A stretch of 63,993 nt of DNA, filler included, from Basidiobolus ranarum (lineage: Eukaryota): NCBI GenBank assembly GCA_040143965.1. It is 4 parts of 4 records of this genome, joined end to end, with 100 filler letters (N's around TTAATTAATTAA, not from the genome) between each part and the next. Parts side by side here need not be neighbours in the genome. Positions count along the whole stretch, not along the records: positions 1 to 16,178 come from JASJQH010000351.1; 3 more parts are not named here. The stretch is one strand, 5' to 3'. Position numbers and translations under genes: made by a program. This document shows, piece by piece, positions 1,752-57,621 of the stretch (its first letter is position 1; each line of letters opens with the position of its first letter). The notes beneath the pieces are model-generated. The model was not told the origin of the DNA and did no database searches. It saw only the letters and a program-made list of their open reading frames with translations.

Positions 1752-2410
1752 TTACGCGCCTGGACCCTTGGATAATGACATGCAGTGTACTTTCAGGGAA
1801 ATAATTGATGACCCAGAACAGAAATCTATATATTCAACTATGCAAAATGAGGCTTTTCTAGGATTAAAAAAGAGTGTCTTCATTACAATACTGATCCATT
1901 TAGTGTTTATCCTACAGAGAAAGTTAGTGAAGATGGATGAGTCGGCCGAAAACTTGTGTAAGCTTTTGTTTCGGATAACGGGTTCGCTTCCGGCCCTCAT
2001 ATTGACTTCTATGATATCTAATGGCATGCCTGGTAATCAACAATTGCTTTCTTTTAATGAGGCGGTGGCTGTTGATGCCTAAACCATAAGCCTAGTATCT
2101 CTATTTGCGTTAGAATACAAGCATTATTCCCAGCGTTAAAATTCTAGAATTTGTTTCCATTCTGGGTTTGTCTGATTCCCTTGACGGTTGACGAATCTGA
2201 GTATATCGTCTGCAGGTGATGGCATCATCCCCTGTACAGACTCATAAATGTCTAGATCAGAGAAATAATGAGATTCTTCTTCGGCATTAGAAGAATTCTT
2301 CCCAACTTGAAGCTAGTTAATGTCAGTCCATTTAACAAAGAGGGTGGTATCATTATATGTATTGGTAATGTTGTCCTCACTGGCTAATTGATCAATCAAG
2401 CAAAGGCCAT
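1752..2410 (-). pseudogene. Degenerate reading frame of unknown family
   Basis: A single minus-strand frame runs about 220 codons (LIDQLASEDNITNTY...PLDIIEVNMRAGSEPV...) with only about five stops (TAG/TAA/TGA), all explicable as C-to-T changes. No family recognised. Confidence 0.3.
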
Positions 2411-2779
2411 ATCATCGTTGTCATTCCAGTCATAAATCCTTAATTTATCTCATGGAAGGTAAATTTTTAAGCTTAGTTTGAGTTTGGAGAGAGTCTGGTC
2501 TATATACTCACCACACTCTCACGTTAGCATTCATTCTTGTGCCTAAGCCACCAATCTTGCACCTTGTCACAAATGAATTTGTCAAATCCAGCTGAACTAA
2601 GCCACTACCTAAGTAAACGTAATAAGATGACTATGGGATAAGTGAATAAAATAATTGTAGACAAATTGTATAGTTCATTGCTCTAACTCATCAGTTTTTT
2701 TTTGAGAGTATATACTTAACAAACCTTTCTATTAGTAAACTAAAAAAGATGTCGATTCTCCTTTTCTCTTCTTCTCTTT

Positions 2780-4141
2780 ATGGAACCACCTCTAAAGATT
2801 ATAGCAGTCAAGAGCTCAATCGCTGGTATTGGGTGGAAGCCACAGTATGCTCTAAAACTCATGCCATTTGTAGATAACATTCATACCCTTATTTCACATA
2901 CGTTTTCCTTTTTTAAGTACATCATTACTCATGAACTGGAAGATGATTCTACTTAAGGCCAAGCTGGCTATTTCGTCAAGAAATATTGAAGATATACTTG
3001 AAGAATTTCTGTCTTCAAACGATTTGGATATGATCCATAATCTTTTTGGCTCTTATTCAACAGGTTATCGATTTGCATGAGACTCAATCTATTACGACTG
3101 CAAAAGCAACCCTCTCAAGCATATAAAGGCGTACACCAGACTGTCAAGCATGTGCAAAGCTTTCCAAAACAAGCCATTCAACTACTTTCCGCTAAGAAGG
3201 GGCTTCATACCATCCTACATCACAATCGATATATATATTTTAAATACTCAAATCCTAGAGAATTCTGTCATCAGCCACTTGGATAAAGAAACAGTATGGG
3301 GAACCGTTATTGACCCCACATCAATGGCAATGAAACCACAAGGAAAAAGCAAGTCAATGAAGTTTAGAGGTACGATATGCACAGTGGTAACGAATACAAG
3401 TTTGCCGAGTATCTTCAAGAAAAAGCTCAAGTCACTCCGGTCATGAGAGGGTATTACTCAAATGAAGATCGTCCTGCAGGAGAAGACCACAATAGGCATT
3501 TACGGATAGAGCGTAATGCGCGGTGACTTTTGACAACAATGAGATTAAATTATTTGGTCCAACCGTCTACTTCTAAGCATGGTATGTACGATCATGATAC
3601 AAAATATATTGCCAAGAATCTTCGAGAGAAGTTTGGGAATGATACTATATTAATGCTTGGTAACTGGTCAGCTGGAAATGTAAAGTATCATGAGCCCAAT
3701 AGAGGCGTCGGAATGAGAAAAATGCTAGCCAAAGAAGGCTTCCAGCTATACCTCCTTGACCAGTTTATAACTTCAAGCCTATGCCCTACTTTCCAGAACG
3801 GTGAACTGGAAAAGCCTCAAAAGGTACAAAATCCTATACCATACAAAAGAGAAAAGTATCCTATTGTATATCGTCACGGCCTTTTAAGGTAAACGCTTTT
3901 TACATGCAAGTTAAAATTCCTAATTCAAACCTAATTTCTATTCAGGTGCAAAAACCAACAGTGCTTAAAGGCCGTGACCGATACTACTTTTAACTTGCAC
4001 TCAAATGGAGAAAGACCAGGACGTTTTTGCAGATTGAAGGAACCTCTCTCCATCGGGTATAAAAGAAAGGGTATCTCGTCAGATAGCAGCAGTCGACCAA
4101 TGAAAAAAGCAAACAACCCTGTGTGGTTATCGCAACGCTAA
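2780..4141 (+). pseudogene. Fanzor1 (eukaryotic TnpB/IS200-IS605-derived RNA-guided nuclease) pseudogene with one intron
   Basis: Collinear Fanzor1-type blocks: MEPPLKIIAVKSSIAGIGWKPQY...HTFSFFKYI; KPFNYFPLRRGFIPSYITID...WG.V.D...KPQG..MKFRGTI; KFAEYLQEKAQVTPVMRGYYSNED; AKNLREKFGNDTILMLGNWSAGNVKYHEP.RGVGMRKMLAKEGFQLYLLDQFITSSLCP; NP.PY...RHGLLR, then intron GT 3889-3945 AG, then CKNQQCL...FNL..NGERPGRFCR. Stop at 4139-4141. Contains stops, frameshifts and internal deletions. Confidence 0.85.
3489..3611 (+). repeat. 123-bp segment duplicated at 7253-7375
   Basis: Ungapped alignment to 7253-7375 with about 10 mismatches, counted by eye. Confidence 0.9.
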
Positions 4142-4179
4142 ACTTTTGATACAGAGTAAATATTTGAATACTTTCTCTT

Positions 4180-4304
4180 TTGCCATGTGTCTACATTTGT
4201 CTAATTTGTCTTGTTCACTTAAATATTTTGCGATCGTCTCATTTATTTTATGAAATATCTAATTGATTGTTTTAATTCGTCTCATTTTAGATTAAAACAC
4301 TGTA
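4180..4304 (+). mobile_element. Right end of a Tc1/mariner-like DNA transposon carrying the Fanzor gene
   Basis: Ends ...AAAACACTG|TA (reverse complement TA|CAGTG, the Tc1-family terminus with TA target). Two internal direct repeats TCGTCTCATTT (about 4234 and 4277) resemble transposase-binding sites. Lies about 160 bp downstream of the Fanzor stop. Confidence 0.65.
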
Positions 4305-5806
4305 CTTTATGAAAACGTTCAAAGCTACAAGTTGTACCTATAGCAATTAATTTGGTTGCAGTATCACAAAATGACTTTTAATACAGCACAGGAGAATGAT
4401 TTTCAGGTTTAGCTGATGCTGATGGGTTTGAACCATCCTGTAGTATTTATCATATGTGAATCTAATATTCTCGTAGCAATGAAAAATGAAAAGTGTATAA
4501 AGTTATATACAAAACGCGATTAGTTTCTGAAGCCTGTACGTACTTGCAAATCCTGGTGGGTTTGTAAATGAATCCATTCTTTGAATCTAATCACATATGT
4601 CGAGGTAGTATCCCAGAGAATCTTGGTATTTAAATGAGTTTAACACATTATATCATGCAAACAGTTCAATAAATACCCTTTAAGACCTTCAATCTACCTA
4701 AAAGTCACTCGCTTCTTGGGAGATAATATTTCAGCGTCAGAGTTTTGAGACTCAAGTCTACTTATAGAGAATAAAATGCTCGTTTTGTAGAGACATTCAC
4801 AGTGCCTAATTACATGTTAGGGTTTAATATTGGAAGCATTAATACTTCCTAGCCCGGCTCTCAATAAATTGGTTTGTATAATAGGAATTTCCAATGTGAC
4901 CCAATCTTCCTGGTACCACTTACATCCAAGAATGGGCTGGAAGGATACGGTTTTGAAAACCTTACAGTAATATTTCATGCACTTGAAGAAACATATTAGC
5001 TAAAATCAATACATATGGCAGTAGAACTCTAACAAACGCTGCTCTAAAGCTCGAGCCAAATAATTGTATACACTAACACTTAAAGCAGATTACTTTGTAT
5101 GATGTCAATATCCCAATTTTGGGTTCTTGAAAACAAAAATGTTAGATGCAGGAAAACTTCCAAATGATTGCTTCAATATGTATGCCCTCACGTCTTTAGT
5201 TGGGTGACTGTTGCATTTTGAGATTGCTTAAATTTCTTTTTTCGTATTCAAGTTTTTGGAGAATCTTCCTAGCCATTTTTCAACATATCATCTGAAATAT
5301 ATCTAGGAACACCAGAAATAGTTATTTGACACATGTTTGTATTTTTACAGCTTCCTAACTTAACAGGAGGATGTTTGGCTACAATCGATAGTTGCTAGAA
5401 ATTATTTTCACACAAGCATAAATATATGACCAAAGGTGTAGGCCAGTACAAGGGAGAATACAAGCCATTTACTTTCCTCATCCCGCAATATTCCAGAATA
5501 AAATACCATTTCTTTTGTAAGAATAAGAATACTTCGAATTCATATTTTACAGCTATGGTACTGTGCCAACGCTTCATATATAGTAGGGCTATTGCCGACA
5601 CTGCAATCATACAACTCTTATTGTATGCTGCCAGAAATTGCAGGCCAGATATATAGTTGAAATAATGCAATGTTTGGGTTAGAGCATGTTTCCGCACAGT
5701 TAGAGATTTTAATTATTCTATCCAAGTGAAGAAGCTTCCCTTATGCCTTTGTTACTTGTCTTCAATTGCCACTTACGCTACTATGTTTATTTCATCAGTG
5801 TCTATG

Positions 5807-6112
5807 TGTTGGAAATGACATAGCTTAAGCATCTATATAGTCATATATTTCGCTACCTAAATTACACTGTTATTATTCAATATCTTCATGAGGAATTTAC
5901 TGAAAATATTGAGACCAACTTGGAAGTTTGAAGATTATATGATTTTCTCAAACTTGTCCAAGAGACCCCAAACTTTGTACTCCATACTTTAGTTTAGCTA
6001 CTTCTTGACAAGAATATAAATGTCAATTTGCATGAAATAAATCATTAAGTGAAAACCACCAATTTTCCTAGTTCACCAAATCACTTCCAACAACTCCCAA
6101 AATACTTCAACA
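5807..6112 (+). mobile_element. Solo LTR (TGTTG...CAACA family) with 5-bp TSD CTATG
   Basis: Starts TGTTGGAA and ends TTCAACA, flanked by CTATG at 5802-5806 and 6113-6117. Homologous to copies at 46626, 47586, 48342, 48496 and 50605. Confidence 0.85.
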
Positions 6113-7169
6113 CTATGAAGGTTTTCTTAGTGTATCCCGAGGCCATAGCTGATGCAACTACTTTCTACCTAGTTTAGTTTGTGGAGTCCCATCATCATTA
6201 TTTATTGTAGTGCTAAAACTAACTCTTAAAGAACTTTCAACTATCAAAATAATCAACCTCTCGCTGCTTTTACAATGCTTACCATATATAAGTTGAATTT
6301 GGTTGTATTGCTATTCTAGAAGATTTTACTTTGCTCTCTAGCACCACATCAACATTCAGGTACTATGGGAAACTTAGCCAAGTGATTATTCCCATACTTA
6401 AAACTATCTTGCAAATATCTGACTTTTAATGCTAATAATGCAAACATTGAAGTCATGACGCACTGATATAGCTAATGATTATAATACAAAACATCATTTA
6501 TTGGGAAATATCGGAGGAGCGTTTATCTCAGAGTGCAATCAGAAAATAGCCAGCTTAAAACTGATTTACTTCAACAATTATAATCATTGATACAAGGTGT
6601 GCTATTTTCAGAGAGTTGTTTGCATGGAAATTGTGCCATATGGTTCAATTCACCTAGATCAACCGTTTGGTTGCAGAGCTATAACCTTTGTAAATGTACA
6701 TGCAAAAAATGTAACCAGTTATGAGCGCAAATGAATATGGAAAATTATGAAAGAAGCATCTCATACACTTTGAATCTTAGAATGTCCGGCTATTAATAAT
6801 TTAGACTCTTCGCTACTGCTACCTAAGTCCATTCTTTAACTCTATTCATCGAAATAAAAGCACGTTGTCTTCATGTATTTTACGTATTTAATTTGCTGGT
6901 AAAATTTATGCTGTTGCGCCTCCGCATCACGTGTTACTTGGTTGAAGCGTGTGTCGGTTCAAGTCAATCAAAGGGGAATGAGGTACAAAGCAGTCTTACG
7001 GGAATCGAATTTTGTGACAGAAAGAGAAAGTTCACACCTTAATTATCAGTTGAGGTGGTTTTATATTTAGATTCATTTAACAATTGAATATTAATAAAAC
7101 CGTAAGCGCCATCAAATATTACGCAAAATCACTCGAGCATTCTCAAAATACCAAGTTCAAAGAGTGGCC

Positions 7170-7670
7170 AACGTGAAGTTATTTCAGCTTGGCGTTATCT
7201 CAACCTAAGCACCAAAGGATTTTGATCTCCAAGAATGCTTGTATTTTCGATGACAATAGGCATTGACGGATAGAGCGCAATGCGTGGTGACTTTCGACAA
7301 CAATGAAATTGAATTATTTGGTCCAACCGTCTACTCCTAGGCATGGTATGTACGATCATGTTACAAAACATATTGTAATAAGCGTCACCCACCTCATCAT
7401 TCAGAATATGGAAGTTATTGTTGTATAATTCCACTTAATATAGCCGACATACCCATGCTCAATTACAACGTGGAAATACGTGCATTAGCTACTAAATACA
7501 AAAACCTCCAAGCACACAGCCAAGAGGTTCAGAGTGTTGCTCACCAAATGTAGGAAAATCCGAAAGGCAAAAACCCCCTGAGGAATAAAGCGGTATTTGA
7601 TTAAACTCATGCACCAATTTGTCATTAAAGCTAGGGCCAGATTAATGGGTTCTTACAAACTACCTTATGA
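7170..7670 (+). mobile_element. Highly degenerate Ty1/Copia pol relic (post-integrase linker to RT start)
   Basis: Frameshifted translations AWRYLNLSTK/RILISKNACIFDD (cf. AYRLYNP..KIIISRDVVFDE), VEIRAL...PKGKNPLRNKAVF and KARARLMG (cf. P.GKKPIGCKWVF, KARLVAKG). Confidence 0.4.
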
Positions 7671-9784: not shown

Positions 9785-10534
9785 ATGAATAGTATCTGGT
9801 GCACACTTCAAAAATTCCTCATAATAGCATGTTTGGTCAACTGTGCTGTATCTTTTAGTCCTCAGAACAGCCTTAAGATGTTTGTTACATACGAGCTTGC
9901 CTGGTTGAACGCGAAGAGCGGGCAGTTTGGTGCAAACATGACCATCTCGCTACCTCAAGAATCCACTTCAAACTGGAAGCTCAAAATCAAATATCAACAA
10001 CCAACCACAAAAATCGCACTTTATTGGGATGGTGATCCAAACACTGGAGACACCTGGAATACTATGTCTGATAAAAGTGATTCCTATATTGTTGAGCCCA
10101 AGAAATCCAATCGCTTGGTGCGCTCATACTTGTTCAATGCCTTGTTTCCTGTTTCCGATGAAGAGCTTGCTACTGATATAGTCAAAGCATATACTCTACC
10201 TGCAAGTTATATTGTGATTCTAGATGATGGCAGCAGTATAACTTTGAATGTAGAGGATGATTTCAAAGCTATGTGGAGTACTGTTCCCACCAAGCGGTTT
10301 GGACCATACGATCGAGCATATCCCCCTGGAGTATCGGCCAGTCCCTCAGGCCCAACGCCGGACGGTACAACTATCGTAGGCACTCCTATTGGTCTCTATA
10401 TGTATGGTGCAGTGTTTCTTATTGGTGCGATGGCCTATTTCTTTGGGACCTTTCAAAGAAGCAGATTCCGCTCGCAATTTCGGTATCAGATGAATCTTAG
10501 GGATGAGATCAAAATGGTTCCTATGTCCAATTGA
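9785..10534 (+). CDS. Secreted/type I membrane protein of unknown function
   Basis: 249-aa ORF with an N-terminal signal peptide (FLIIACLVNCAVS), a beta-rich ectodomain, a Pro/Ser/Thr linker, a C-terminal TM helix (IGLYMYGAVFLIGAMAYFF) and a basic tail. Confidence 0.75.
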   Translation: MNSIWCTLQKFLIIACLVNCAVSFSPQNSLKMFVTYELAWLNAKSGQFGANMTISLPQESTSNWKLKIKYQQPTTKIALYWDGDPNTGDTWNTMSDKSDSYIVEPKKSNRLVRSYLFNALFPVSDEELATDIVKAYTLPASYIVILDDGSSITLNVEDDFKAMWSTVPTKRFGPYDRAYPPGVSASPSGPTPDGTTIVGTPIGLYMYGAVFLIGAMAYFFGTFQRSRFRSQFRYQMNLRDEIKMVPMSN

Positions 10535-16178: not shown

Positions 16179-16278
16179 NNNNNNNNNNNNNNNNNNNNNN
16201 NNNNNNNNNNNNNNNNNNNNNNTTAATTAATTAANNNNNNNNNNNNNNNNNNNNNNNNNNNNNNNNNNNNNNNNNNNN
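16179..16278. other. Artificial contig linker (N44-TTAATTAATTAA-N44)
   Basis: Six-frame stop spacer embedded in Ns; identical structure at all three gaps. Confidence 0.95.
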
Positions 16279-18998: not shown

Positions 18999-20150
18999 TC
19001 AATCAAAGGAGTATCCCCATTCATGTTCATTTTTCACATAATCCATGACTTTCTTAGCGCTACGCTTCCATATATCATCATCTTCTGGGTACGCTTCGGC
19101 TAGTTTTTTCAAAGCTCGAACGCTTTTTATCACATGGGCAAGGACATCTTCGCTGTCTACTGCAGCTTGAGAGATCTGCACCCAAGCCTCGGTTGCATCT
19201 TTAGATAGGCTGCCTGTTGGATATTGACTTATATTCTCCCATGAGACTTTAGGACTCCTGACTGCAACATGCATTTGGAGCGTAGTTAGCCACATCAGGC
19301 GTAGCGCTCTAATTTGATCTTTCTTCATTAGCTGAGGGAGTATAGATCGAGTAGCATGCAGTCCAGTCAAGAGATGGCATAAGAAAAAGTTTGGGCGGTA
19401 CTGCGAGGATTGACCTAGAAATAACAAGGTGATTGCCTTTGAAAGCTCATGGACCCTTTCAGAATACTTACCATCCGGAAAACTAGGATCCCATGCCGCC
19501 AGGTACTCTCCTGTACACTCCACGTGTGTCTCATCAACTACTTTCAGAAGATTGGTATTTATATTGTATTCAGGAGTGATATCATTCAATCGAGAGTCAT
19601 CATTCATTTGTTCAAGAGTCTCTGTTAATGATTTAGATGTCGATTTAAACGCTACTGTGTCAATCAATTCACCATGAGAATCATACGCGAGAGTTGCAAA
19701 TGCCAGAGCTTCGGCTAGGACCATATCATTTCGAAATTCAACAGCATAGCCAAGGTGAATAAGAGGATGAACTATATGCCCACCTAGGCCCGGTAACAGC
19801 GTTGGTACATACTTCTGAAAAGCCCTATCAAAGCCAAGTTTCGAGACTTCTCCTTCAAAGAAATCCGTCAAGTCACGATAAGCTGAGTCGTTGCCATAGA
19901 AGTCTTGATAATTATGCTCAGTTATGCTATACTTTGACTCTGGCATCTTGGCCAGGTAAGTGGCAACAAGCTTCTCATATAATTCACGCATACGCTCCTC
20001 AGTGGCCCCCATATCGTATAGACTCCCTAATAGGTGGACCCCATGATTGTGCTTAAATGTTTCAAAGAATAAACCGTAATCCTGATGATTCCGAATAATT
20101 AATTCTTCAAAGGCTTTCTTAGCATTGTCGCAGGTAGAAGTAGAGGTCAT
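18999..20150 (-). CDS. Questin oxidase-like / AflY-HypA (DUF4243) oxidoreductase
   Basis: HNHGVHLLGSLYDMGA, HPLIHLGYAVEF, LAEALA, FFLCHLLTGLHA and HVIKSVRAL motifs. Intronless; likely start MTSTST at 20150. Confidence 0.85.
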   Translation of the reverse strand: MTSTSTCDNAKKAFEELIIRNHQDYGLFFETFKHNHGVHLLGSLYDMGATEERMRELYEKLVATYLAKMPESKYSITEHNYQDFYGNDSAYRDLTDFFEGEVSKLGFDRAFQKYVPTLLPGLGGHIVHPLIHLGYAVEFRNDMVLAEALAFATLAYDSHGELIDTVAFKSTSKSLTETLEQMNDDSRLNDITPEYNINTNLLKVVDETHVECTGEYLAAWDPSFPDGKYSERVHELSKAITLLFLGQSSQYRPNFFLCHLLTGLHATRSILPQLMKKDQIRALRLMWLTTLQMHVAVRSPKVSWENISQYPTGSLSKDATEAWVQISQAAVDSEDVLAHVIKSVRALKKLAEAYPEDDDIWKRSAKKVMDYVKNEHEWGYSFD

Positions 20151-22714
20151 GATGTTGATTGAACTCTCTTTGAGCGCAATGAACACTCTATATAGTTGTG
20201 AATGTATGCGATGTTTGGTATACCAAAACCCTCTGGATGAAACATTAATGATGTGCAGGCCAATGAAGGGATGATAGCACATTAGTCAAGCCTAAACATT
20301 GAAGATCTTCGAGTCACATTAAACCTAGATGACGCTTCCTAAAATCCATTCGGCCCGAATCTTATGTTTGACCGATCAGAACTTGCATTAGTAATAGCCC
20401 TAACCTTACTAATCGTCACTTGATACTGTGTATCTGACTAATTGGAATATTGTTTAAGTCTCCGATCCTTCAAGATGAAAGCCGAAAGGAGTCGATCCGA
20501 GATCAAGGTGAGAGAGCCGAATATTACTTCGATGCAACTCCAATCATTCCTATTCTATGAAATAGATCATGGATTACTTGTAGCATGAGATTCATTAATC
20601 ATGTTCAAATTCTAGAAGCTAATTGAGATCAAATTAAAAGATAGCTTGAAGATTAACTGGTTTAGTATTTCGTTTGACAGCTATGAAAATATTTTCAATG
20701 GCCTAATAACTGAAGTAACACAACCCTTCAATCTCGTTTGAGTACCTTCTTATCTTTAATTCACTACCCTCCTTGACGCTCTGAGCTTCTTTCAAGTACA
20801 TGAACACGATGGCTTTTAGCAGCAATGTCTTTAGATGACATAGTATCCATCCATGTAACGGGACTGTACGCTACCTCAGAAACATAGACCTAATCATATT
20901 TATCATATTGCACTAAGCCGGCAAGTAACTAGAAAAATGAATCTCATCCATTGTAGATAGTAGAGATTTCAGTGAAGAGCGAATTGTGCTAGTTTTCGAG
21001 ATGGTCTCAGCAAAGGGTCTCCCCTTAAAAGTTAGCCAGCACATTCTCCCCAGATTCCATGCTAGCGGATTTTATATAAATACATGCAATGTTTGAATTA
21101 TTTTTTATCTGGCAGGTGTATGGTCGCATTTGGTATTACCTCTACATAGGTTGTCACTCGCTAGCTAGCTTTACCCAGACATCGTTTTGACTATACAGGG
21201 CGGCGGATCTTGTCATGATAAGAATAGCATCAGTCTAACTTGCCATTCATATATATAAGGATTCTCTATATTTCCATACCTCGATGCACTCTTGGCACTA
21301 CGCTCGACCACTGCTCCACCCGATCTAACATTGATGGTAACGAGTTGCTAAGAATATTGCAGAAAATCCAACCAATGGCATTGCACCAAACGTACAATCA
21401 TTCCAATCAATCTACAGATGAATATAACCTGACTTTTTCGCTGTTTGATTGTCAACATCTATGCTTAATACCCTATTAATCTTTATGACACAGAATCCAC
21501 CACTATTGTGTATGTTATATCAAAGCAACTTTATTCCGTAGTAGGCAACTTCTGGCAATACGCCTCCATAATTTTCTATATCTCACCAAGTTGTGGCCAT
21601 ATGCACCAAGTACTGCTACTGCACCTAACATCAGTCCTCTCGACAAATATTCAGCATTAATTTTCATTATTTTAGAGTTGCTTCTTGCCAAAAAAAAGCA
21701 CTGTTGTTGGAGCAGCGTCATATACTGTTTCCATATAGGGGCTATTTCGAGGACTTTGTGTGATCTTAGTGACAAGTTGGCCCAGCACTACGAATACACT
21801 ACTGGTACCTAATAGTTTTTAATGTTACTCGCCTTGTATACGGCATCACCATGTTCGATCCTATCTTCAGGGTTGCCAAACTTCTGATTAATGCAATCAA
21901 AAAGGTCATGGAGCACCTTTTACTTTACAATTCTTTTTTGTCAAGGACCTATTTGATTGCTCTTGCATTGAGATGTTGTAACATGCCAAATTTATGTTTC
22001 TGCGTATAATGTAGAATTTCCACACAGCTATTATAACCGATTTCTGACTTAGTACGTACATTATTGCTCGTATCGGATTCATCTTCTATGTACAGATTGT
22101 ATTGTAACTGACTCCCAACTCTCCTGAAGCAAGTTGTACTTCCCCCGGTTTGAGCATCGCCCTTATTGATTCTATCCACTTTAGACCTCGACATTCTTTG
22201 TATTGAATGACCAGTATAGCAACCACTCTCAATCAGTGAATGAATTAGTAATCATATTCTCATAAAACCAACAAAAACCCATGCCAAGCAATTTAATCCT
22301 TTAAGCTCGTGAGTAGATTCCGAATTAACGATATCTCAATACCAACTGCCTAGTAGGAGCAACTCGTGAAGTAACTCTCTATAGATTTGGCGGAATAGTA
22401 AGTGTTATAGTTAAACATATGTAGATAAAACAAGATTATGATGCGCAAACGCTCTTTTGGCTTCTCATGGATTCGACGAGAAAATCATGAATCTCAATGG
22501 CGTTCAGCGAAGCAAGGGTTAGGTAAAATGTTTATTATCAACTTAAGGATGACAAACGACAAAAGTTTTAGATGCACAGAAAAATGGATATGTATCCGTT
22601 GTGTGCATCATTTAACTGCAGTACAAATTTAACGAGATAAATGGATAGAGTAGATGACCAGGGATAAGTTTCGTTTCGAATATACTTGAGTTACTCTTTT
22701 GTTGGTTTCTTAGT

Positions 22715-32424: not shown

Positions 32425-32524
32425 NNNNNNNNNNNNNNNNNNNNNNNNNNNNNNNNNNNNNNNNNNNNTTAATTAATTAANNNNNNNNNNNNNNNNNNNN
32501 NNNNNNNNNNNNNNNNNNNNNNNN
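32425..32524. other. Artificial contig linker
   Basis: N44-TTAATTAATTAA-N44. Confidence 0.95.
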
Positions 32525-46625: not shown

Positions 46626-46962
46626 TGTTGAAATTAGCATTGCCTAAACACCTATATAGTTATATATAGCTTAGTATTTAGCTATCCTATATTGAACTAA
46701 GATATTACCCATAGTTCGATATCGGAATTTACTTCGAATATTGACCAACTTAAAACTCTCAGATATATAGATTTTTCAAAGAAACCCCAAACTTTGCACA
46801 CATGTTCCTGGGACCTTCCTTAACACACTCTACACGTTAGTTTGTTTACATCTTGACAAAACTATAAATGTCAACTGAATACTCAATAAATCAACAAGTG
46901 AAAACCACCAATTTCTCTAGTTCTCCAAACCACTTCCAACAGGCTCCCAAAATACTTTAACA
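46626..46962 (+). mobile_element. Solo LTR with 5-bp TSD AACTC
   Basis: TGTTGAAA...TTTAACA flanked by AACTC on both sides. Same family as 5807-6112. Confidence 0.88.
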
Positions 46963-47585
46963 AACTCCTCCCTATATCTGGTGAAGATATTGTGACCGCT
47001 GTATTAAGTTAGCACTAGCCCAAGTATGCTATTAGTCTAGTATATCAAATATGAAAGGGAAGCTCATAATCGTAATCTTGTAATACACTACTTTCTTTGA
47101 CTAATTGTTGATTCCAAAGATGTGACAACTGGCATATAGCATTGTTCACTTGGAACTGGACATTGTTATTATCATATCGATATAGGTCTATACAATCCAT
47201 TGCATATTGGATTGACTCTTTCTAAACATCTTTCCACCTGATAGTGTCTTATTCATTGGCCAAAGTGAGACCCAATGTGTGAATATGGAATGATATTCAT
47301 AAATCACTATCATAACAGATATTGAGTTTTTTGTACAAAACTTACGTTATGTCTGAGTTTCTAGTGATCTTTCCTAGCTTGAATATATACTATAAGCACA
47401 GTAATATTGCTCTTCAAGCATGATAGGATAGGAAACAATCAAGTGGTAGCAACCTGTTACTCTATGTGATTATAGCAATGTATATAAATGATGGAATGGG
47501 TTTTGGCATCATTACTGCCAACATTAACCATTTGATTTTTGCAGCAGCACAGTTGTTATTGTTGAAATATTTTGAGAGTTTGTTG

Positions 47586-47913
47586 TGTTGAAGTTACATA
47601 GCCTAAACACATATATAGTCATATATAGCTTAGTATTTAGTTATTCCATATTGAACTAAGTTATTACTCACTAGTCTCAAGAGGAATTTACCTAGAAGTT
47701 TCAAGATATATAGATTTTGAGAACTTGTCCTAGGGGCCTCAAACTTTGCACACATGTTCTCGAGACCTTCCCAAACACATTTGACACGTTTATTTCTTTA
47801 CTTCTTGACAAAGCTATAGATATCAATTTTCCACCCAATAAATCAATATGCAAAAACCACCATTTCTTCCAGTTCTCCAAACTACCTCAACAAACTCCCA
47901 AAATGCTTTAAAA
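47586..47913 (+). mobile_element. Degenerate LTR copy, same family
   Basis: Starts TGTTGAAG and is collinear with 46626-46962. The 3' terminus is decayed and no TSD is visible. Confidence 0.75.
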
Positions 47914-48341
47914 GATGTCACTTCATATTTAGTATATAGTGTTATCTGAACCAAAATAATAGTCTCTGACATTATGAAAGTGATGCCCCTACTCTTTGTG
48001 ATGCTGTATAAATTTACACTCAGTCCTAGCAATAAATCAATTCAGAGTTCATATTTTTTAAACAATTTTTTTAGTAATTAGTCTTTGCTCTCCCTAAAGT
48101 TAGTAGTTGTCATGTCTGAGACTGCACTGATCTCAGATGTTGAATCTGTTCAAATGTTAGAAGTAAGCTTGTAACTATGCAAATATAATGCTTATTATAT
48201 TTGTTTTTTGCTCAGCAAATATTTCACAAGTCTGAATCATCATATCAACTTTGAATATATTTGACAAATATCAGATATGGTCAGGAAGATGGAAGTATTC
48301 AAACCTGTTCAGAGCTTCCCAAACTTGAACACCCTAGAAAC

Positions 48342-48495
48342 TGTTAAGTATTTGGGGGCTTGTTGGAAGTGGTTTGGAGAATTAGAGGAATTGGTGATTT
48401 TCACTTATTGATTTATTGAGTAGAAAGTTGACATTCATAGTTTTGTCAAGATATAAGCAAACAAACATGTGGAATGTGTTAAAGAAGGTCCCAGG
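48342..48495 (-). mobile_element. 3' half of an inverted LTR copy, interrupted by another LTR
   Basis: Reverse complement matches the 3' half of 46626-46962 (…CCTGGGACCTTC…CCCAAATACTTAACA). Confidence 0.8.
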
Positions 48496-48658
48496 TGTTG
48501 AAATTAGCATTGCCTAAACACCTATATAGTCATATATAACTTAGTAATTAGTTATCTTATAATTCACTAAGATATTATCAATTATTCTCAATCGGAATTT
48601 ACTTAGAATATTGACACCAACTTAGAAGTTCTCAGATATATAGATTTTTCAAACTTGT
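48496..48658 (+). mobile_element. LTR 5' part (nested insertion), cut by contig end
   Basis: TGTTGAAATTAGCATTGCCTAAACACCTATATAG is identical to the start of the 46626 copy. Confidence 0.85.
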
Positions 48659-48758
48659 NNNNNNNNNNNNNNNNNNNNNNNNNNNNNNNNNNNNNNNNNN
48701 NNTTAATTAATTAANNNNNNNNNNNNNNNNNNNNNNNNNNNNNNNNNNNNNNNNNNNN
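48659..48758. other. Artificial contig linker
   Basis: N44-TTAATTAATTAA-N44. Confidence 0.95.
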
Positions 48759-50604: not shown

Positions 50605-50939
50605 TGTTGAAAATGACATAGCTTAAGTATCTCTATAGTCATATAGCTGGTTACCTAAATTCTTTAATTATTATTCTATATCTTCATGAGGAATTTACGC
50701 TGAATAATTTTACCAACCTGGAAGTTCTCAATTTATATGATTTTCTCAAACTTGTCCAAAAGACTCCAAACTCTGTACACATATTCCTGGGGCCTTCTTG
50801 AATATATACTACAGGTTATTTTATGTACTTCTTGACAAAACTATAAATGTCCACTTTCCACTCAATATATCAGTAAGTGAAACCCCCATTTCTTCGAGTA
50901 GTCCAAATCACTTCCAACAACTCCCAGAATACTTCAACA
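50605..50939 (+). mobile_element. Solo LTR with near-perfect TSD CTAAT/CCAAT
   Basis: TGTTGAAAATGACATAGC...ACTTCAACA; most similar to the 5807 copy. Confidence 0.85.
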
Positions 50940-51172
50940 CCAATGAGAGTGCAACATATGAGAAGCTCATACAATAAAAGATGTAGGAAACACCAATGGC
51001 ATTCTCATCAGTCATTTCTTTAGAGAATTTTTCTTTGCAAAGAATGCAACGCTTCATACTGGATAAGCATCATCAATTAATTTTGCTCAATTTTGCAGTT
51101 GATAATATTTTATTTTATTATGTAGGAGCTTGTATATTATTTCAGCAGTAATAGTCAGTATATATATATAAT

Positions 51173-53008
51173 TCAAGATGCACAAATGTTAACCTCCTTT
51201 TTTGCTTGTGCAATTACCATATCCGCTGACTTTTCACTAACCATCTCAATTGGAATAGTAACAAAGAAGCCAGGAATTTTAGGAAAGATCGACGCATCCA
51301 CAACTCTGAGCCGATTAACACCGTACACCTTTAACTCGGAATCAAGCACCGCCGATGGATCATTTTTAGCACCTATTTTTGCGGTGCAACAGGCATGATG
51401 GCCCCAGCTATTATATCGAACATATTCTTCAACATCTGCCTCAACTCCGGGGAGTAATTCCTGATTCACAAACAATCTGTTTATCAAGCCTCCATTGAAT
51501 TGGCGACGCATCCATTTCAATTGTTTAGCATTGGCGTCAATATCTTTGTTTCCATCCGACCAATAAAGAAAATTAATATCAGGAACATCAGTGGGATCAG
51601 AGTTTCTTAGCCGTACATAGCCGTTATTGTTATTTGTATGAGCTTTGAGCATTATGATGCTGACTTTGTCGGTAGTGTTTGTAGCCTCAACAGAATAACC
51701 TTGGTAATACCCATGAAACATTCCCACTGCGCCAAAGATGTAAACATCGGGTTCTTCAAGCGTACTTGAAGTTTTGGTATTCAGTCCAAATATGACTCCA
51801 GTGGAAGTATAAGGTCCTGAACGCTCATTGATGTAAGTGGCATAACATGGATCTACAAGTGGATCCGCGACGAATTTGCATCCTTTCAGGAGTTGATGTG
51901 GTGAATTCATTTGAAGATTGAGAGAGATTTCCATATGATCTTGAAGATTTTTCCCTACTCCGGGCAGTGCAGACCTGATGGGTATATGCCACTTCTTTAA
52001 CTCTTCTGGATCACCAATTCCACTCAACATTAATAATTGAGGTGTATTAAAGGCACCACCAGCAAGAATCACCTCCCGCTTTGAGTAGACTGTTTGAACA
52101 CTTTTTCGAGAGTTTTCTTTATGACGAGGACTAGCCTTGTATAAGTAAGCTCCTTTCATATACTCTACGCCTATTGCATCGTTATTGTTATCGAACAACA
52201 CTTTGGTGGCCAGTGTCTCAGTCCATATAGTAAGAAATTGTGGCACTTGTCGAGCAACTGACTTTATGAAATCCCGTGTGCTAGTTCTTACGTAGCCATT
52301 TTCTTGATCAATATTTTGAGGTGGTAGATGCCATCCAGGCTGTTTGTTAGGATAGAATGATTCGTGTGCAGCCCCTCTATTTACATCACCTCCTGGTGTC
52401 GGCAACATACTTGTAATAGCATTCTTAAACAGAGTCATTAATTGAAGGTCAGGATATTTAATAGCCAAAAGTATGTCAAGATAAGAGAAGGAAGCCCATC
52501 CAACATTCTCATCACTCTGTTCTCTGTGATTCTTCTTCAATCGATTATAATATTTTCTCATATTTTGATTTGACCAAGAGTCATCACCCAACTCTTTCGC
52601 AATACCATTGAAATCACTCACATGAGGATACATACCTATCATAGCATTATGAATGGTACATCCCCCTAATCCCCCAACCCGCGGATACCAGACATTTTGT
52701 CGTTTACCAGTAGACTCTGGAAACTGCTTGGTAAAGAAGTCCCAACTGATATTTGCATCCTCTGAAGCCTGAGTATAGAAAGCTGGTGTGGATACATTAG
52801 CACTATTATAGTCTGGACCAGCTTCAATGAGTAATGTTTTATATCCAGCAAGTGCCAATCTACCAGCCAAAGGTCCACCACCAGCTCCACTTCCCACCAC
52901 AATATAGTCATACTCTGCTTGACATCTAGACTGACCGTGAACTTGAGTAAAGATAGAAGCAACAAGTGAAAGTGTTACAGCTAACCGACGCTTCTCAGTA
53001 GTGAGCAT
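51173..53008 (-). CDS. Secreted GMC oxidoreductase (AA3/choline dehydrogenase-like)
   Basis: Signal peptide, YDYIVVGSGAGG (FAD binding), YPRVGGLGGCTIHNAMI, EVILAGGAFNTPQLLMLSGIG, GVGKNLQDH, SWGHHACCTAKIG and LRVVDASIFP. Intronless. Confidence 0.93.
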   Translation of the reverse strand: MLTTEKRRLAVTLSLVASIFTQVHGQSRCQAEYDYIVVGSGAGGGPLAGRLALAGYKTLLIEAGPDYNSANVSTPAFYTQASEDANISWDFFTKQFPESTGKRQNVWYPRVGGLGGCTIHNAMIGMYPHVSDFNGIAKELGDDSWSNQNMRKYYNRLKKNHREQSDENVGWASFSYLDILLAIKYPDLQLMTLFKNAITSMLPTPGGDVNRGAAHESFYPNKQPGWHLPPQNIDQENGYVRTSTRDFIKSVARQVPQFLTIWTETLATKVLFDNNNDAIGVEYMKGAYLYKASPRHKENSRKSVQTVYSKREVILAGGAFNTPQLLMLSGIGDPEELKKWHIPIRSALPGVGKNLQDHMEISLNLQMNSPHQLLKGCKFVADPLVDPCYATYINERSGPYTSTGVIFGLNTKTSSTLEEPDVYIFGAVGMFHGYYQGYSVEATNTTDKVSIIMLKAHTNNNNGYVRLRNSDPTDVPDINFLYWSDGNKDIDANAKQLKWMRRQFNGGLINRLFVNQELLPGVEADVEEYVRYNSWGHHACCTAKIGAKNDPSAVLDSELKVYGVNRLRVVDASIFPKIPGFFVTIPIEMVSEKSADMVIAQAKKEVNICAS

Positions 53009-55850: not shown

Positions 55851-56705
55851 TCACTTTTTTGAGGAACCACATTCGTCAGCAACACCGAACTCAATATTTC
55901 TGAAGTAAACATACGCATCAACTGGAGTGGCAAATCTTGGCTCAGAACCACCGAAAAATGTGCTGAACATCAATGATTGAATGCCCAGGTTGGGATTCGT
56001 TCGGTATGTAAGCGAGTCTATCGCTAACACTTTGGTTTTGTTTATATACAATTCAATATTTCCATTCGAAGATCCCACATCGTTGACTTGGACAAACATG
56101 TGAACCTGATTCCAACCAGTAGAAAATTTATATTTGTCTCTCCCAATAGATGTGCCGTAATCCTTATTACAAACAACATCCGTCGTTTTGCAAAAACTAT
56201 CCCCTTGTTTAGGTAAATAGTCGTATACCTCTCCAGCACCACTTTGACGCCACATGAGGCGCGTGCTAAAGCATTTCTTTCCGTCCGATTGATTACCACC
56301 AGAACACCCGCTAGCGGCTTCACCGGCGTACAAACCCGGGAGTTTTCCCCCTTCAACAAAGTTGAAGCCTTCCTTGAACCCAACCTCATAAGTTAGGATT
56401 GCACGTTGATAACCATTTGTACCAAACGGCTGTGAATAGAAATTCACTCCTCCTTCCTTGTTAGAACCAGATGGGGAGTAACTTCCCTTGGGATAGGACA
56501 CCTGAAATACATTCTCACCAGAATTCTCGAAAGGATCTGGGACCACCTTTAGACGATCTAATTTGGCGTCTTTAGCTAAGGCTAAATTGTTAGAGTTGGG
56601 GTCCATTTTCCACGTTTTCTCCATTTGATATTTGCTTGTTACTGGCGCATTATCCACTAATTGAAGAACGCCAAGGAAGCAAAGTGTAGTCAATGTGAGT
56701 TTCAT
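55851..56705 (-). CDS. Secreted polysaccharide lyase family 14 (alginate/glucuronan lyase-like)
   Basis: Signal peptide, YPKGSYSP, GGVNFY, FNFVEGGKLPGLY, CSGG, CFSTRLMWR, YGTSIGR and FSTFFGGS. Confidence 0.9.
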   Translation of the reverse strand: MKLTLTTLCFLGVLQLVDNAPVTSKYQMEKTWKMDPNSNNLALAKDAKLDRLKVVPDPFENSGENVFQVSYPKGSYSPSGSNKEGGVNFYSQPFGTNGYQRAILTYEVGFKEGFNFVEGGKLPGLYAGEAASGCSGGNQSDGKKCFSTRLMWRQSGAGEVYDYLPKQGDSFCKTTDVVCNKDYGTSIGRDKYKFSTGWNQVHMFVQVNDVGSSNGNIELYINKTKVLAIDSLTYRTNPNLGIQSLMFSTFFGGSEPRFATPVDAYVYFRNIEFGVADECGSSKK

Positions 56706-57621
56706 CTTAAGGTGAATGGGAGGTTATTGTTCAAAGAGTATCAGGAAGTGTTCTAATTAAAGCAGTTTACCAGAAACTGTTAAAATGAGAGATGATTTAA
56801 AAAGTAGACAAGATACTAAGTAAACACAGAAAGATGGTCTTTTTCTGTAGTGTTGAGTTAGGATTTTTATAGAATATTTTGAAATCCCGACCAACTCAAG
56901 GTACACTGATGAAAGTTCCCTTTTTTAGTCGACCCATTTACATGAAAGTGAATCGAGGAAACACAAACCCTTACGAGTCTTTGCAGATTGGATTCAACGA
57001 TGTAATATTTATTAATCTAAGGACGAACAGTCATTTTGAAAGGGGACCTTTCTAAGTTTCAATGAACAACCATACAGACAACACTAAATATTCATGAGAA
57101 CAGGTACAAACAAATTGATCTCATAGGGGAGTGGCCAATGTATTAAATGTTCTTGACCTTTTGGTTACCAAGTCTTTATCAAACGCGGATTGTATTGGCC
57201 TGATGTCAGATTTTAATGAACCTTTGTTTATTTTACATTCTGAGGTACAAATGGAGTTAGATGATTTAGGTCAGCACCATTATTGGCAATTTCCTCCAAC
57301 AATCGATGAACTTCATAAATTTCCAAATTCAATCAAAGTCACTATATAACTTGCTAAGCACTGAACCCGGGGTGAAATTAAAGTCCATATAAATCATACC
57401 AAAAAGAGGGGATGGACAAATTATTGGTTTGAGTTCTATTGAGAGCCAATGGAGGTATACCATGGGGTTACTCTTCGAGTACGTGGCATGTAGTACTGAA
57501 AATTCCATGATACAATCAGGGTTCAGGTGAATGTCAGTTCCATGATTCAGAACCGTTTGATTGGCATATAGCTCACGTGTAGATTTGACATTAATATAGT
57601 TACTATGTGTATGGAAGAAAA

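Follow-up and report, generated by a model that had tools for sequence, protein, structure and literature searches.

A decayed, transposase-less Fanzor1 element in a Basidiobolus ranarum assembly and its probable origin from a Rhizopus-family parent

Published work has already described the Fanzor1 elements of Mucorales, with their introns and mariner-type carriers, and has pointed to their likely movement from one eukaryote to another (PMC3627910, PMC10432273, PMC10530073, PMC11423790), and the structures of PpFz1 of Parasitella parasitica (PDB 9cf0-9cf3) and SpuFz1 of Spizellomyces punctatus (PDB 8gkh) are those of active RNA-guided nucleases (PMC11423790, PMC10432273). SpuFz1 is encoded by a lone Fanzor open reading frame (ORF) between inverted repeats, as is the nuclease of the family described here, and full-length, partial and 'ghost' SpuFz1 copies coexist in one genome (PMC10432273). 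Fanzor1-only elements with Mariner-type ends, PUl-4 among them, were reported by Bao and Jurka (2013, PMC3627910); the main text of that paper puts the Rhizopus element ROr-4 in MuDR, with 9-bp duplications, and its text, supplements aside, contains no description of a TA-flanked Rhizopus Fanzor1 family. A full-text literature search returned no paper that joins 'Basidiobolus' and 'Fanzor'; the supplementary tables of Fanzor surveys may list Basidiobolus matches. Here we describe a Fanzor1 relic at 2654-4304 of a 63,993-nucleotide stretch (the window) of the Basidiobolus ranarum assembly GCA_040143965.1. It is a decayed, 5'-truncated, Fanzor1-only and non-autonomous Tc1/mariner-like remnant, the Rhizopus-family parent of which probably entered the Basidiobolus lineage from Mucorales and then decayed. 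The relic itself is an ordinary dead transposon that adds nothing mechanistic, and what makes it of interest is the Basidiobolus assembly in which it lies. The window consists of four consecutive contigs of one assembly (16178, 16146, 16134 and 15235 bases). Spacers part them at 16179-16278, 32425-32524 and 48659-48758, each with 12 bases between two blocks of 44 N; features on separate contigs are therefore not physically linked and only contig 1 (1-16178) provides genuine genomic context for the relic.

Fragments of one Fanzor1 gene were confirmed across 2780-4141 (+), where they lie collinearly with all motifs present in the sequence and its stop-to-stop frames (2000-5200). An ATG at 2780 opens MEPPLKIIAVKSS... 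in frame 2 (MEPPLK...); frame 3 carries ...KAKLAISSRN... and, within an ORF at 3081-3446, FPLRRGFIPSYITID, as far as FRGTI at ~3383; frame 2 carries GNWSAGNVKYHEP, LLDQFITSSLCPTF and HGLLR in an ORF at 3527-3892, with ...KFAEYLQEKAQ... at the point where that frame resumes; and after a 57-nt GT...AG stretch the frame reads CKNQQCLKAV... to a TAA stop at 4139-4141. A first-pass annotation of this DNA had assembled four ORF fragments and an unlisted N-terminus into a single collinear protein, and each motif and coordinate that it listed was found again. Translated searches (tblastn) agreed: residues 75-217 of the Rhizopus arrhizus/oryzae protein P0002, which UniRef labels 'Transposase' of Rhizopus oryzae, matched 2955-3383 (76% identity), residues 338-577 of the same protein matched 3389-4123, and residues 1-56 of protein P0013 matched 2780-2947. 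With E-values of 2e-73 and 8e-67, chance similarity is excluded.

The identification of this protein as a Fanzor1, also made in the first-pass annotation, was borne out by direct matches between pieces of the window and the two solved Fanzor1 proteins. The window's own spliced C-terminal product (P0019) matched PpFz1 (9cf0) at E=1.2e-33 and SpuFz1 (8gkh) at 1.1e-11, the piece at 3081-3446 matched the same two proteins at E=1.8e-22 and 1.7e-4, and a full-length member of the family from Coemansia matched PpFz1 at E=9.7e-101. PpFz1 is the closest solved structure to the window pieces, and the motifs FPLRR.FIP.Y.T.D, GNWSA.N.KY..P, DEF.TS..CP.C and HGLLRCKN..C are common to both. It differs in being an active nuclease with a 5'-ATN target-adjacent motif and a cyclophilin-binding RuvC insertion (PMC11423790), whereas the window copy is dead. 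To judge from the sequence of P0002, a PpFz1-like RuvC insertion appears to be absent from the Rhizopus family of that protein and from the window copy, and in the alignment of the Coemansia family member ~100 PpFz1 residues are unmatched between two matched stretches. SpuFz1 is more distant, as the E-values above indicate; its inverted repeats are 30 nt long, as against 135 nt in the Rhizopus reference element introduced below, and its omega RNA has been shown by experiment (PMC10432273), while that of the family in the window is putative. An exhaustive HMMER search with 3527-3892 returned 682 proteins at E<=0.001, and matches carry a precomputed assignment to PF26935.1. Local Pfam searches gave no family above noise for six window pieces, and for full-length relatives they gave PF07282 (Cas12f1-like_TNB) only, at E=0.007-0.04, under the cut-off; no relative of P0002 was found among viral contigs.

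The reference for the anatomy of the relic was a Fanzor1 element of Rhizopus arrhizus/delemar at 1721-4580 of L001, a 4815-bp metagenome contig that encodes P0002 at 99.6-100% identity. This 2,860-bp element has 135-nt terminal inverted repeats (89% complementary), and its ends read TA/TAGTGTTTTAATC...GATTAAAACACTA/TA, that is, ...TA/TAGTG...CACTA/TA..., with a TA target-site duplication seen on both sides and with longer duplications that do not fit. The window copy has the same gene order, intron site, terminal repeat and TA flank. It differs from the Rhizopus element in its terminus (CACTG versus CACTA), in its position on a contig labelled Basidiobolus, and in its foreign 121-bp patch and two stops; moreover, L001 holds a pair of terminal inverted repeats and the window only the right repeat, with only the right TA (4305-4306, half of a target-site duplication). 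No DD(E/D) transposase was found in either setting (the L001 element holds Fanzor frames only, and six contig-1 ORFs are without a transposase domain), and the element is therefore at best non-autonomous. In holding Fanzor1 only, in its terminal repeats and in its TA flanks, the L001 element is like the elements with Mariner-type ends such as PUl-4, which differ from it in hosts and sequences (PMC3627910).

The right end of the window copy is what ties it to this carrier. It reads ...GATTAAAACACTG/TA at 4292-4306, with ...AAAACACTG/TA at 4300-4306, and the CACTG/TA terminus (4300-4306) noted in the first pass is a real feature of the family. CAGTG is a typical Tc1 terminus. The 3' untranslated region (UTR) and right terminal inverted repeat together occupy 4142-4304 (+), are homologous to the right end of L001 and end in ...GATTAAAACACTG; the repeat itself (4197-4304) is 73.9% identical to the right repeat of L001 and 76.5% identical to the reverse complement of its left repeat, and because the same segment matches the reverse-complemented left repeat as well, position 4304 marks a true end of the transposon. 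Window and L001 are almost identical over the last ~30 nt. An inverted-repeat search found no terminal pair within the window, and the right end is recognisable only through L001. The proposal of a Tc1/mariner-type carrier thus stands, since this right end is homologous to a 135-nt repeat that is TA-flanked on both sides in L001. In the right repeat (4250-4304 here and 4520-4580 in L001) a CGTCTCATTT..TTTTA-like motif occurs twice in direct orientation, an arrangement reminiscent of the paired sites at which transposase binds in some Tc1-family repeats. Active Fanzor1 elements encode an omega RNA scaffold at the right end (PMC10432273), and by analogy 4142-4304 would correspond to the omega-RNA region; this segment is ~67% identical to L001, a two-sequence consensus fold had 0/14 predicted pairs covarying (n = 2 sequences), and no Rfam families were found on L001. 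As a TA-flanked, long-repeat Rhizopus Fanzor1 element, L001 has a right end that could be mined for an omega RNA.

Aligned with L001, the window copy breaks into a series of fragments on the plus strand. A remnant of the 5' UTR lies at 2654-2779, with robust blastn similarity from 2734 and a weak 37-nt match at 2654-2689 (E=0.29); no similarity to L001 is left upstream of ~2654, and the left terminal repeat and ~390 bp of the 5' end of the L001 element have no match anywhere in the window. The N-terminal coding fragment in frame 2 (2780-2944, 55 codons) has 82% nucleotide and 75% amino acid identity to L001 2220-2384, and the larger interval 2734-2944 is 79.7% identical to L001 2179-2384. It ends at the junction of deletion A (2945-2954), where L001 2382-2790 is absent, ~406-409 bp of the N-terminal region are gone and the frame changes. 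The middle fragment in frame 3 (2955-3384), which contains FPLRRGFIPSYITID, is 430 nt long, ungapped and 81.4% identical to L001 2791-3220; it is followed by the junction of deletion B (3385-3388), at which L001 3221-3579 (359 bp) is absent, the frame changes again and residues 218-337 of P0002 have no match in the window. A further frame-2 fragment with ...KFAEYLQEKAQVTPVM... (3389-3489) is 83% identical to L001 3580-3680. It gives way to a non-Fanzor patch of 121 nt (3490-3610) in place of 79 bp (L001 3681-3759), to which the patch has no homology by alignment. A second copy of the patch sequence, 123 bp long and 92% identical to 3489-3611 on the same strand, lies 3.7 kb downstream on contig 1 at 7253-7375 (+). 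The patch holds the start codon of an annotated 181-aa product and an in-frame TGA (3524-3526), the other in-frame TGA being at 3078-3080.

Beyond the patch, a fragment covering RuvC-II and the first part of the zinc finger (3611-3888; GNWSAGNVKYHEP, LLDQF, TSSLCPTF, HGLLR) has 83% nucleotide and 78% amino acid identity to L001, and 3611-3916 is 84% identical to L001 3760-4065. After the intron at 3889-3945, the second zinc-finger half CKNQQCLKAV (3946-3976) is 87% identical to L001 4081-4127 and aligns to CKNMSCLE of PpFz1. At the junction of deletion C (3977-3987) L001 4128-4216 (~89 bp) is absent, and the P0002 stretch ...RRLWNRDMAATLNF... has no counterpart in the window. The C-terminal tail with its TAA stop (3988-4141) has 82% and 71% identity to L001 4217-4363, and 3988-4304 as a whole is 66.8% identical to L001 4217-4580. 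The breaks that the first-pass annotation had placed after FRGTI and KAVTDTT prove to be genuine losses, of 359 bp (at ~3384) and ~89 bp (at ~3977) when L001 is the reference; the third deletion (A), the patch, the two in-frame stops, the missing left end and the make-up of the window from four contigs were absent from it. No second Fanzor1 copy was seen in the four contigs by tblastn of relatives or blastn of L001, and none of the results lends support to the first-pass suggestion that this genome may have intact copies.

The spliceosomal-type intron within the zinc-finger region (3889-3945 (+), 57 nt, GT...AG, phase 2), which had been proposed from the window alone, contains an in-frame TAA and has a homologue, in position and sequence, in L001 (4038-4096, 59 nt). 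Both introns split the same codon (AG/G of HGLLR/C), both are GT...AG, and homology is clear over their first ~24 nt. Across the L001 intron the reading frame passes from frame 1 to frame 3, so that splicing is needed there to read the WNRD block, and both public gene models remove the intron, the P0019 model splicing out 3889-3945. Judged from this comparison, the 57-nt intron is a real feature of the family.

The catalytic state of the window copy was assessed against SpuFz1, whose catalytic triad is D383/E541/D606 (PMC11423790). When the triad was mapped by counting residues in the alignments (chain numbering offset 394), these residues corresponded to the IDP aspartate, the DE(F/Y) glutamate and the WNRD aspartate of the family, all three of which P0002 keeps (LIDPGRRD, LLDEFRTSSLCPSC and RLWNRD). 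The window copy keeps none of them: the RuvC-I aspartate of IDPGRRD lies inside the 359-bp deletion B, the RuvC-II glutamate of the motif DE[FY]xTS is a glutamine (LLDQFITSS), and the RuvC-III aspartate of (N)RD lies inside the ~89-bp deletion C. In Fanzors the RuvC-II glutamate is relocated, and the E467A mutation abolished cleavage by the Fanzor2 protein ApmFNuc (PMC10530073). The C4 zinc finger (CPxC ... CxxxxC) is likewise incomplete, reading CPTF ... CKNQQC with 3/4 cysteines and phenylalanine in place of the second. Both substitutions that had been reported, DE to DQ and CPxC to CPTF, are present in the window, and the claim of a nuclease-dead copy holds, with two catalytic aspartates deleted and the glutamate replaced. 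Because all three catalytic residues and one zinc-finger cysteine are gone, the copy is nuclease-dead several times over, and because the left end is missing it is also immobile; given these losses together with those of frame, it can neither cut DNA nor transpose.

The 18 longer protein matches of the piece at 3081-3446 comprise 8 from Rhizopus (70-79% identity), 5 from Gilbertella (61-66%) and 5 without a name; no Basidiobolus protein is among these 18 or among the 14 longer matches of a second search, both searches being candidate-limited. Names were available for 21/27 related clusters, of which 12 are from Mucorales, 7 from Coemansia, 1 from Syncephalis and 1 from Basidiobolus, the last being the window copy itself, since P0019 is letter for letter the public 'hypothetical protein K7432_007251 [Basidiobolus ranarum]'. 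The phylogenetic analysis used the window pieces linked by X, with the patch masked. In a quick mixture-model tree (39 rows) the window grouped with R. arrhizus/delemar copies (Shimodaira-Hasegawa-like approximate likelihood-ratio test, SH-aLRT, 98), and an LG+G4 tree of the 27 rows left after removal of those that were gappy, long-branched or near-duplicate (P0032, P0189, P0190, P0020, P0191, P0081, P0078, P0348, P0169, P0011, P0016 and P0068), united the window with 6 Rhizopus rows at a support of 100/99. This clade was nested in clades of 11 rows (97/94), 12 rows (100/99) and 20 rows (100/98), in which the named rows, the window aside, are all from Mucorales and five rows are without an organism name. 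A constraint that united the 19 Mucorales-clade rows to the exclusion of the window was rejected by the approximately unbiased (AU) test (delta log-likelihood 101.9, p-AU 9.8e-6). The Rhizopus-type resemblance and possible horizontal transfer suggested in the first pass are consistent with these results, in that the nearest matches are from Rhizopus and both the tree and the AU test place the copy inside Mucorales.

Divergence from the Rhizopus copy was low. Over 380 codons the window and L001 shared 81.4% of nucleotides and 74.7% of amino acids, with 0.137 nonsynonymous (dN) and 0.603 synonymous (dS) substitutions per site, a dN/dS of 0.23 and a third-position identity of 73%, and non-coding parts (the 5' UTR, the start of the intron and the terminal repeat) could still be aligned. 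We infer from the low dN/dS that functional elements accumulated most of the divergence, to which the neutral decay of this copy contributed little. Gilbertella, a genus of Mucorales, is further from Rhizopus than is the window copy. Since synonymous sites are far from saturated and non-coding DNA aligns, descent from the common ancestor of the two phyla was judged incompatible with the data, and the low divergence (dS ~0.6 versus the Rhizopus copy) would place the move long after the phyla split. It is thus likely that a transposase-less, Fanzor1-carrying Tc1-like element moved across phyla, from Rhizopus-lineage Mucorales into Basidiobolus. The parent belonged to the family of Rhizopus arrhizus/delemar and had long terminal inverted repeats, a TA target duplication and, as its sole gene, a one-intron Fanzor1 RNA-guided RuvC nuclease, which in active relatives binds the omega RNA of the right end and cuts DNA matching a flanking guide. 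Horizontal transposon transfer from a Mucorales fungus to the Basidiobolus lineage, presumably in that direction, would then have been followed by decay, through a deletion in the N-terminal region, the patching in of 121 bp of local DNA, two stops, two frameshifts and loss of the left repeat. With the left end missing, the sequence may also have come in as a fragment of DNA and not through transposition. Other work has reported that genes were transferred horizontally into Basidiobolus (PMC7466969).

Three other origins or fates of the relic were weighed against such a transfer. Long vertical inheritance, in which an old Fanzor1 family of the Mucoromycota/Zoopagomycota ancestor was kept in both Rhizopus and Basidiobolus, would fit the wide occurrence of Fanzor1 in early-diverging fungi, including the Zoopagomycota genera Coemansia and Syncephalis, in agreement with PMC10432273, yet it is highly improbable in view of a dS of only 0.60, a third-position identity of 73%, alignable non-coding DNA, a position closer to Rhizopus than that of Gilbertella and the rejection by the AU test of a placement outside Mucorales. 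The genes of the hosts point the same way, the highly conserved MYST protein being only 57-60% identical between them as against 75% for the Fanzor pseudogene. The MYST/Esa1-type acetyltransferase used in this comparison is a single-exon gene on contig 2 (27572-29035); it is 57-60% identical to four Rhizopus rows and <=61% identical to every other fungus among the matches listed. Equally improbable is a domesticated, nuclease-dead derivative, in which the 181-aa spliced P0019 would be a functional host protein made from the Fanzor C-terminus. An open, spliced 181-codon frame is indeed present and annotated, and all catalytic residues are gone as in known dead TnpB derivatives (10.1101/2023.11.30.569447), but the start codon and first ~24 residues of P0019 come from the unrelated 121-bp patch, one zinc ligand is lost, the whole recognition and wedge (REC/WED) part, RuvC-I and RuvC-III are absent, so that the RNA-binding fold cannot form, and no second copy or orthologue was seen in the four contigs or in the candidate-limited protein search. 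The annotated 'hypothetical protein' is, we infer, an artefact of gene prediction over the last part of the relic that remains open, and the public entry can be flagged as a pseudogene fragment.

More weight, although still an unlikely account, attaches to contamination, in which contig 1 or the part of it that bears the relic would be a contaminant or chimera from an unsampled Mucorales fungus and no transfer into Basidiobolus would have occurred. The nearest relatives of the relic are all Mucorales, the assembly is in contig fragments of ~16 kb, the GC content is the same as that of Rhizopus-type DNA, and no flanking gene of contig 1 has been placed taxonomically. Read-through of Rhizopus arrhizus DNA is nevertheless at odds with an identity of only 81% to the well-sampled R. 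arrhizus/delemar family, the patch within the relic is either the source or the copy of a sequence 3.7 kb distant on contig 1, a dispersed repeat family of contig 1 recurs on two other contigs of the assembly (72-82% identity between contig 1 and contigs 3 and 4), and the public record assigns the protein to Basidiobolus ranarum. Several points weigh against transfer from Mucorales as the preferred account. The flanking genes of contig 1 do not show its taxonomic origin (the ESM Atlas was uninformative on the ORF at 9785-10534), and GC content, at 0.37-0.39 everywhere, does not discriminate; the MYST gene, whose 79-80% identity to Basidiobolus proteins speaks for that host, sits on contig 2, while the repeat joins contig 1 to contigs 3 and 4 and not to contig 2. 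A single copy is visible, with no transposase, left end or target duplication to show insertion by transposition. The tree is unrooted (midpoint), the group constrained in the AU test was named after the tree had been seen, and the better-fitting mixture model is backed by the quick tree only, which agrees (SH-aLRT 98). Finally, the first ~80 codons of the L001 copy (2220-2483) do not share the frame of the remainder (2419-4038), and the reference copy may therefore carry a frameshift near 2420-2480, or an unrecognised short intron there, and so may not be fully intact.

The relic is a concrete and datable case of a Fanzor-bearing transposon common to Mucoromycota and a Basidiobolus assembly. 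If transfer from Mucorales is the correct account, transposons that carry RNA-guided nucleases would demonstrably mediate exchange across phyla, between early-diverging fungi that live together in dung, gut and litter.

Other features were noted in the sequences analysed. On L001, an open frame upstream of the element (1-906) has a sub-threshold Phage_integrase (tyrosine-recombinase) match (E=6.4e-4) and may be a Crypton-like neighbour, and within 908-1234 a perfect inverted repeat with 43-nt arms (975-1017 and 1192-1234), together with a third related arm, suggests small insertions resembling miniature inverted-repeat transposable elements beside the Fanzor1 element. In the window, the dispersed repeat family common to contigs 1, 3 and 4 lies at 5806-6113, 46626-48658 and 50605-50940 (72-88% identity), and contig 3 ends within it. 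An ORF with a bacterial-like globin domain (Bac_globin, E=3.5e-10) lies at 759-1256, 1.4 kb upstream of the relic. On contig 2, 16856-17500 carries an RVT_1 reverse-transcriptase fragment (E=4.6e-8), probably of a decayed retroelement. The other contigs also bear ordinary fungal genes, namely a questin-oxidase-like gene (18999-20285), a GMC oxidoreductase (51173-53008) and a polysaccharide lyase of family 14 (55851-56723). The contig-2 acetyltransferase is 79-80% identical to the nearest two Basidiobolus proteins, which are themselves mutually 77% identical, and these values indicate several divergent MYST copies in Basidiobolus of what is normally a single gene.

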